From: Eledone cirrhosa
Taxonomy: Eukaryota
Assembly: GCA_964016885.1 (NCBI GenBank)
Contig: CAXHJY010000175.1
Span: forward strand, 1-49,758
Direction: 5' to 3'
DNA length: 49,758 nt
The position numbers and the translations under genes are program-made. Within the stretch, counting starts at the first letter, position 1. Every line of letters starts with the position of its first letter. The notes under the pieces are model-generated. The model did no database searches. It saw only the letters and a program-made list of their open reading frames with translations, and had not been told where the DNA came from. Shown piece after piece: positions 19,408-19,570 of the stretch.

Positions 19408-19409
<2 letters not shown>

Positions 19410-19570
19410 ACGAAGGAAATGTGGTAAGGAACCAGGTGGACCATAACGCACCAAAGTACTCAATACTTAGGGTAGTAGAGTGGGTAATAGGAACCAGTAA
19501 GACCCCGACGGCTGAGCTCAAGCCGTTTCGACGGCTTGAGCTCAGCCGTCGGGGTCTTACTGGTTCCTAT
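19408..19570 (-). mobile_element. Family P fold-back element carrying the 3' half of a hammerhead
   Basis: Perfect inverted repeat 19488-19570 around a TTCG loop; homologous to 22846, 28620, 44713, 48150 and 49428; flanked by (TA)n. Confidence 0.85.

Follow-up and report, generated by a model that had tools for sequence, protein, structure and literature searches.

The repeat loci studied here are the 5'-truncated pLTR ends of a Penelope-like element (PLE) of the Hydra clade, intact ORFs of which lie elsewhere in the genome. We think it probable, with some reserve, that these loci are head-to-head pLTR copies made of two cDNAs, one primed from each side of the target, and that both cDNAs would have run off a capped transcript starting inside helix II of the element's own predicted hammerhead ribozyme.

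In the window (the whole stretch of 49,758 nucleotides analysed), one repeat family accounts for 14 pieces: five head-to-head inverted pairs, two single arms (28620 and 47990), a fragment and an extra tail piece. Positions along all arms are numbered from the G of GAAAC, which is 0. The pieces are as follows.

19410..19536, minus strand: tail-bearing arm of subfamily A1, -7 to about +119, ending in (TA)n; it matches the pLTR of L205's intact element at 127 of 130 positions.
19531..19570, plus strand: tail-less arm, +3 to +42, ending with TTCCTA at the border of (TA)n, without GAAAC; overlaps the other arm by 6 nt through a small GAAA-loop hairpin.
22846..22891, plus strand: extra inverted tail piece (+63 to +108), a second fold-back, tail-to-tail.
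22890..23027, minus strand: tail-bearing arm of subfamily B from A-18, the putative transcription start, with a G before it.
23028..23084, plus strand: tail-less arm, -14 to +42; its junction type makes up 22 of the first 100 rows of purine-before-A-18 matches.
28607..28695, plus strand: lone arm belonging to the older subfamily C, from about -20 to +66, with its 3' end at another TAT within the tail.
44712..44846, minus strand: tail-bearing arm, -12 to about +119.
44846..44893, plus strand: tail-less arm, -5 to +42.
47985..48114, minus strand: diverged single arm, probably from A-18 with a G before it; 3' limit approximate; when aligned strictly to L205, it can be followed only as far as -8 or -9.
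48147..48203, minus strand: tail-less arm of subfamily C, from -12, overlapping its partner at GATC.
48200..48331, plus strand: tail-bearing arm of subfamily C, from -12.
49430..49567, minus strand: tail-bearing arm from A-18.
49568..49622, plus strand: tail-less arm, -12 to +42.
49645..49679, plus strand: further fragment of subfamily C, about GAAAC to +35, absent from the first-pass annotation.

All five inverted-pair junctions differ: 19408 (-7/+3, 6-nt overlap), 22846 (-18/-14), 44713 (-12/-5), 48150 (-12/-12, GATC overlap) and 49428 (-18/-12). In every pair, one arm extends to about +119 and carries the tail while the other ends at +42, and both 3' ends enter (TA)n, the one exception being 22890, where the tail end turns back into the extra piece. 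The 5' ends of the window copies lie between -20 and +3, and none reaches the 5' hammerhead core. The first-pass annotation had described six loci that keep only the 3' half of a hammerhead, with no CUGANGA upstream, and this description holds, all window arms starting at -20 or later. The motif it had reported, GAAAC-GGC(loop)GCC-GUC-GGGGUC, is indeed found, exact or diverged, in all the copies that it named, the short arm at 19531-19570, which starts at +3 and has no GAAAC, being the exception. The window copies are not tandem, and they lack both the 5' core box and the 5' strand of stem I. Rfam returned no hammerhead among the best 150 of 292 window matches, those shown being microsatellite-driven matches of the miRNA type.

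Several other repeats share the window. A different family, in which the CUGANGA...GAAAC core is complete and helix II is long, is present at 26979-27058 (plus), 41464-41542 (minus) and about 49270-49347 (minus); the first two copies are 80% alike over 81 nt, and their single-copy minimum-energy folds are not hammerheads. The minimal type of PLE hammerhead is represented by short CUGAUGA/CUGAGGA...CCGAAACG motifs at 22760-22810 (minus), adjoining the 22846 locus, and at 32648-32695 (plus). A further repeat, which has CUGAUGAGGAC and a hairpin, occurs in three copies, at 38016 (minus), 38121 (plus) and 48509 (plus); they have no GAAA at the usual place and are possibly rearranged hammerheads. 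Positions 8950-9075 and about 28760-28880 hold copies of a common short repeat, putatively an octopus SINE. A long AT-rich inverted repeat at 48913-49107 is unrelated to the family and scores below threshold against a plant miRNA model, and a GT-rich low-complexity repeat with 9-nt steps at about 1129-1550 might, on the minus strand, be a coding repeat rich in threonine/proline.

The family is abundant: a 29-mer from the 3' half, a pattern that misses the youngest subfamily, matches the genome exactly at 39,097 places, and its reversed control at 0. A protein search retrieved many open frames of 784-819 residues, some of them within arrays of 3,531-nt period, and a search for CUGANGA with a gap of 41-70 nt led to complete copies, some with endonuclease coding sequence upstream. 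The parent element has one ORF, an open frame of 784 aa, in a tandem period of 3,531 nt, with a full predicted hammerhead before it. This ORF contains the reverse transcriptase (RT) motifs FDIESYY and YRDD, together with a GIY-YIG motif (VIY...YIG) at its C terminus. Pfam scored GIY-YIG above its cut-off for a fragment in L103, one of five pieces submitted; three full parent ORFs had no Pfam hit, the PDB gave none, and the 2,049 homologues of the ORF are nearly all unnamed. DKT, a CxCX5C linker, CxxC and CxH are present, and CCHH and GxKF/Y are absent. Because this motif set matches the clade description (section 11 of PMC8557442), we assign the element to the Hydra clade. At the place matching the RWK motif of that clade, the ORF has RWR. 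The label Neptune was rejected, the ORF having neither a CX2-5CxxC linker nor a CCHH endonuclease. Copies have two fixed 3' ends, +42 and about +119, with a tail of about 77 nt, and at both sites the ends run into TATA in nearly all sampled arms, that is, they are inserted in (TA)n, as in the Hydra clade. The architecture is that of endonuclease-bearing (EN+) PLEs: partial pLTR tandems, an inverted 5'-truncated copy, a tail at one end and a hammerhead in the pLTR. With its RT placed by motifs and by-eye alignment, the parent is best described as a family new to an already known clade; its architecture is known as well.

Complete copies carry a predicted type I hammerhead. In the parent, its elements follow one another as ACCCC, UUGAGAA, helix II (54 nt), GAAAC, helix III, GUC and GGGGU, with a U3-A8 core; across parents, helix II measures 54-56 nt, and helix III is a stem of 5-6 bp. 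The earlier proposal that the window copies are 3' halves of such a ribozyme stands insofar as the stem-I complement ACCCC and a core lie upstream in the parents; the core, expected to be CUGANGA, is UUGANAA in most of them. Since the core is mostly U3-A8, searches for CUGANGA miss the parents: none was consistently found within 40 nt upstream, and a CUGAGGA pattern alone has 18 genome matches, compared with 7,059 for the comparable pattern allowing U3-A8 (CCCYTGANRA-N50-62-GAAACGGC, exact matches, against 2 in the control). An impression gained from CUGAGGA only, that less than 0.1% of copies are complete, was overturned once the U3-A8 core was allowed. Among 116 full copies outside the loci selected on CUGA, 94 have U3-A8, 20 a C3/A8 mismatch and 2 U3/G8, and position 7 varies freely. 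The 20 mismatched cores fail the 3-8 pair of the type I hammerhead, while the family has the other features, namely the boxes, the UH triplet, three helices, an open stem I and G10.1-C11.1.

When 18 related copies were compared, using a structure drawn from these same copies, 82% of cells were paired, 21 had two-sided changes, and 1 of 500 shuffles scored as high; basal helix II is among the parts with two-sided changes across subfamilies. The minimum-energy fold is the hammerhead for L205, L115 (plus-strand copy) and L251, and not for most of the other, older single copies. Cores arranged by subfamily (L074, L099, L100 and L107; L131 and L219; L205 and L225) suggest a succession from C3-G8 through C3/A8 to U3-A8, the C3-G8 cores coming from diverged subfamily C loci selected on CUGA; thousands of copies may carry the mismatched C3/A8 core. 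One locus, L374 (G000:C2:356030082-356032010, minus), consists of 299-nt tandem units that comprise the pLTR and the ORF start; their U3-A8 hammerhead is complete, a deletion having shortened its helix II; two adjacent units share one change, and the array looks like a retrozyme-like derivative.

Where copies end was determined mostly in samples from the start of contigs C1 and C2. The arm-end sample comprised 80 loci, of which 75 were taken around exact 29-mer hits within the first 19 Mb of C1 and 5 lay elsewhere; it contained 88 tail arms, 67 of which have an inverted partner within about 200 nt. The breakpoint histogram relative to GAAAC is far from uniform and piles up 10-24 nt before it: among 155 arm ends, 106 lie in -24 to -10, 3 in -65 to -25, 0 in -199 to -66, 8 past -200 and 38 at -9 or downstream. 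The same hotspot marks single, non-inverted copies flanked by (TA)n, whose starts are mostly at -14 to -22, within the range that the search pattern allowed. Junctions are diverse, 63 of 67 being distinct (28 with an overlap, 8 blunt and 31 with inserts), and because they differ, the pair insertions are independent events; the first-pass annotation had rightly seen independent events at one hotspot 5' of GAAAC. An identical junction can also recur in different subfamilies, the commonest one occurring in A1, A2, B and both orientations, and junctions of the 19408 type number 416 genome-wide. A1 and B differ by 2 nt in spacing, with no displacement of their ends (p 0.98); a shift hinted at initially vanished on retest and was rejected. 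A 3' splice site in helix II was likewise rejected, as no recurrent upstream exon appeared in the junction inserts listed.

This pile-up looks like an RNA 5' end rather than a stall of the RT. Among 225 pLTRs followed by ORF sequence, we examined 78 units at 70 loci, drawn from the first 100 listed. In 54 units, several of them from shared arrays, 1.2 kb of ORF or more comes after the pLTR, and not one of these units stops at the hotspot: two flagged by the script align on to -80 and -301, and the 28 resolved 5' ends lie between -49 and -1159. The remaining 24 units, with shorter ORF sequence, include 7 from one array (L374) and 2 in which the core is complete and the ORF interrupted; every one of the other 15 starts at -9 to -21. 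In 12 of these 15, a further hotspot start comes immediately after the ORF piece (to +214 to +953), which is what one would expect had the RT jumped from the RNA 5' end to an RNA fragment and run off again. No hotspot arm out of 168 adjoins an inverted read-through arm (15 flanks unassigned), and for 20 read-through copies fetched, the 10 traceable partners comprise 8 that also pass the hotspot, 2 that stop inside +34 to +79 and none that ends at the hotspot; in 2 of the 8, one arm skips helix II. A stall at every pass (123 of 137 sampled arms stop) would not produce such a distribution. Against the reading as an RNA end, two read-through arms (L401:7113-7338 and L402:249-730) skip helix II, from about -5 to -68 and from -11 to -85, which means that helix II can impede the RT or be lost by subsequent deletion. 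The two arms of L401 stop at about -102, and neither has a tail.

Sequence features around A-18 suggest what this RNA end may be. Extra G residues from the cap, found at full-length L1 junctions, are a mark of capped run-off (PMC11702581), and the Penelope promoter of D. virilis is located inside the pLTR (PMC2377424). In the first 100 of 5,034 purine matches, tallied by hand, the base before A-18 is G in 87 and A in 13. The ratio is 48:13 after removing 39 rows whose G could be supplied by the partner arm, and 28:13 after a harsher pruning of the G rows only (p 2e-4 against genome composition, p 0.03 against other end positions, where G:A is 13:18). Full copies have G at -19 in only 1 of 141; the G before A-18 is read as untemplated. 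A-18 itself lies within TYAGTY, an Inr-like motif present in all main subfamilies and similar to the Drosophila initiator consensus, and a TATA-like box stands 29-31 nt upstream of A-18 in A1 and B; the box is mostly absent in A2 and C, which share the hotspot. Besides this missing box and the unshifted ends of A1 and B, other observations speak against a capped start: the ends are scattered across about 15 nt, a C or G is the first base of many of them, which is atypical of a start, and the extra G is found in only 2 of 42 distinct (TA)n-flanked single copies (hand count). In the sampled loci, the G excess is modest (14/27 against 18/65, p 0.03), and the ends of paired arms correlate weakly (rho 0.15, n=57), lying within 1 nt in 19 of 57 (p 0.03). 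We infer that A-18 would be the main polymerase II start, and that the other ends would be minor starts or trimmed cDNAs.

The two arms of a pair behave as separately primed cDNAs would. All 67 partners of tail arms are without a tail, and the arms belong to the same subfamily in all 51 classifiable pairs, which means that they have the same source. The first-pass annotation had proposed that the RT stalls in helix II at each pass and that a single cDNA then folds back and copies itself. Such snap-back is known for R2 (PMC11371274), and self-priming has been proposed for PLEs (PMC3846280); the shared subfamily of the arms, the 6-nt self-complementary overlap at the 19408 junction, and the short inserts at some junctions, of which about 4 of 13 of at least 5 nt are fully templated from the nearby arm, would all suit it. 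However, a folded-back, tail-primed cDNA could copy only what it holds, and the tail-less arm often extends beyond it: the tail arm reaches further in 25 of 67 pairs and the tail-less arm in 32, with 10 ties (57 resolvable), and GAAAC is present only in the tail-less arm in 13 of 67. Mirror forms are, moreover, symmetric. Those of the 19408 type stand at 43:57 in the first 100 of 416 matches (hand count), and at the two commonest junctions the -18 arm is with tail in 17 cases and without in 17, 4 of 38 being unassigned; 1,290 joins fit the pattern in which the tail arm ends downstream of GAAAC, the mirror form of the 19408 type being counted among them. If the loop between inverted arms flipped at a later time, this could account for part of this symmetry, which weighs against the two-cDNA counts, but flipping cannot explain those of the 13 pairs, several in number, that have no inverted repeat, because nothing is left to flip. 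In L205/L206, a tail arm of about 300 nt is joined to an array of several units, the end of which is the tail-less site. Together with the absence of stops in the 54 long-ORF units, these counts largely refute snap-back as the general route, and we now consider it very improbable. Still less credible would be palindromes that are a non-autonomous MITE- or SINE-like element amplified from a few master copies. The best 30 matches to one window junction do mostly share it, in a search biased by its query, and 38 of the first 100 purine-before-A-18 matches belong to only two junction types; but the diversity of the 67 junctions, and the spread of the commonest one over three subfamilies and both orientations, speak against a few masters.

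Two further explanations differ in what ends the cDNA. In the first, which we regard as unlikely, the RNA continues upstream and, in most particles, the element's protein or an extended helix II fold blocks the RT at the hammerhead, close to where it starts, like the template boundary of telomerase, the state being set per particle: both arms stop or both pass. This fits the concordance of arms, the repeated stops after jumps, and the two arms that skip helix II, whose upper stem spans about -14 to -22 in the fold. Yet a block predicts neither a G specific to A-18 nor Inr- and TATA-like motifs, the upper stem, at -2.1 kcal/mol, has little stability, and in the Anolis element a 5'-truncated template gave a shorter product, the RT having run to the template end (PMC11167929). 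A nuclease could instead create the template end within helix II, through 5'-to-3' decay halted by a bound protein or through a cut in the hairpin, the G then reflecting an untemplated C added by the RT at a blunt end. This would explain both the run-off data and the 15-nt spread of ends, but untemplated addition would be expected at all ends while the G excess is mainly at -18, and the promoter-like motifs stand at the right spacing in A1 and B; we hold it to be quite improbable.

Under the capped-transcript reading that we favour, the mRNA would start at about -18, inside helix II of the predicted hammerhead, and would be capped. Both sides of a cut (TA)n target would prime cDNA, at two internal start sites; each arm would be a cDNA of its own, and both would run off the capped 5' end before being end-joined. 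The RT would usually engage the pLTR that has the ORF after it, which on a linear mRNA is the 5' pLTR, and would from there copy only about 55-135 nt from each start. This choice of pLTR is suggested by the Anolis protein, which needs ORF-start RNA on its template downstream of the start sites (PMC11167929), if the same is true here. Long and tandem copies would require another RNA, without the capped -18 end and with a whole unit upstream of the ORF-linked pLTR: most simply a circular monomer, otherwise a transcript started further upstream. The first-pass annotation had alternatively suggested that the half-ribozyme is cleaved in trans. This is structurally feasible, as RNA from -18 and a separate 5' half are predicted to co-fold into the same hammerhead (-23.4 kcal/mol), and the split hammerhead could for that reason be a route to the circle. 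The copies themselves show neither cleavage nor a circle, because their ends do not clearly pile up at the cleavage site, +23: by eye there are about as many joins at +20 as at +23, CC microhomology blurs the picture, and only 4 of 155 arm ends lie at +22/+23. We put forward only tentatively, as possible rather than likely, that the element has its promoter inside its own ribozyme, that the mRNA bearing the 3' half would keep its cap while its far end supplies the 5' half, and that the split cut would yield a circle serving as template for full-length tandem copies. If so, linear mRNA would give rise to palindromic stubs only, and the ribozyme would act as a switch between message and genome.

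The cited papers state the origin of the inverted and tandem structures of PLEs, and the role of their hammerheads, as open (PMC8557442, PMC11167929, PMC4209133). A family that has both intact ORFs and tens of thousands of copies makes copy ends countable; from these numbers we argue that each insertion has two primers and that the RNA templates are of two classes, and they single out A-18 and the predicted circle junction at GUC. They also indicate that searches restricted to CUGANGA miss thousands of complete motifs. In the literature searched, which mostly leaves subscription journals uncovered, no PLE transcription start was placed inside a hammerhead and no copy-level evidence was given for two PLE template classes.

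Among the closest described systems are Hydra-clade PLEs such as Hydra-1_Obim (PMC8557442), which shares an ORF with RT and C-terminal GIY-YIG, DKT, CxCX5C, CxxC and CxH without CCHH, (TA)n targets, a hammerhead near its end and RT blocks that are alike by eye. Its unit is 2,507 nt long, as against 3,531 nt here, and its hammerhead has a short stem II and C3-G8; the present element, with its helix II of 54-56 nt, mostly U3-A8 cores, clear pLTRs and arrays, is a separate family. PLE copies with an inverted pLTR and a tail, as presented in the available parts of PMC3846280 and PMC8557442, are similarly head-to-head and 5'-truncated, with the tail at one end only and small junction overlaps; their tail is of 30-40 nt, compared with about 77 nt here, and the mechanism is left open or attributed to self-priming, whereas the statistics of the present copies point rather to two primers and to an RNA end that is fixed. 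Regarding biochemistry, the Poseidon element of Anolis (PAc) has in vitro two internal RT starts bounding the tail, an AT-rich target, extension of both strands and uncleaved RNA as template, all of which correspond to the present reading; it belongs to a different clade, and the portions of PMC11167929 considered report no start inside the hammerhead, no 5'-end pile-up and no two template classes.

PLE hammerheads as described in the excerpts used of PMC4209133, including that of Schistosoma Cercyon with U3-A8, are also of type I and located in the pLTR, with U3-A8 covariation, a palindromic loop III, motifs in close opposite-strand pairs and a proposed circle; here, by contrast, helix III has 5-6 bp, helix II is long, and most sampled copies hold the 3' half only. 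L1 twin priming (PMC11702581, in part) offers a parallel in which two target ends each prime a cDNA, the products are joined head-to-head and an extra G marks capped run-off. In L1, it is non-overlapping parts of the RNA that are inverted, whereas here both cDNAs cover the same stretch, and the result is a palindrome. Finally, animal non-LTR retrozymes (bioRxiv 10.64898/2026.07.22.740005, in the part considered) are pLTR-derived and non-coding, as is the case for the copies described here; the window copies differ from them in being neither tandem nor provided with a 5' core, while the L374 array, with its 299-nt tandem units and complete shortened hammerhead, has the tandem form of a retrozyme.
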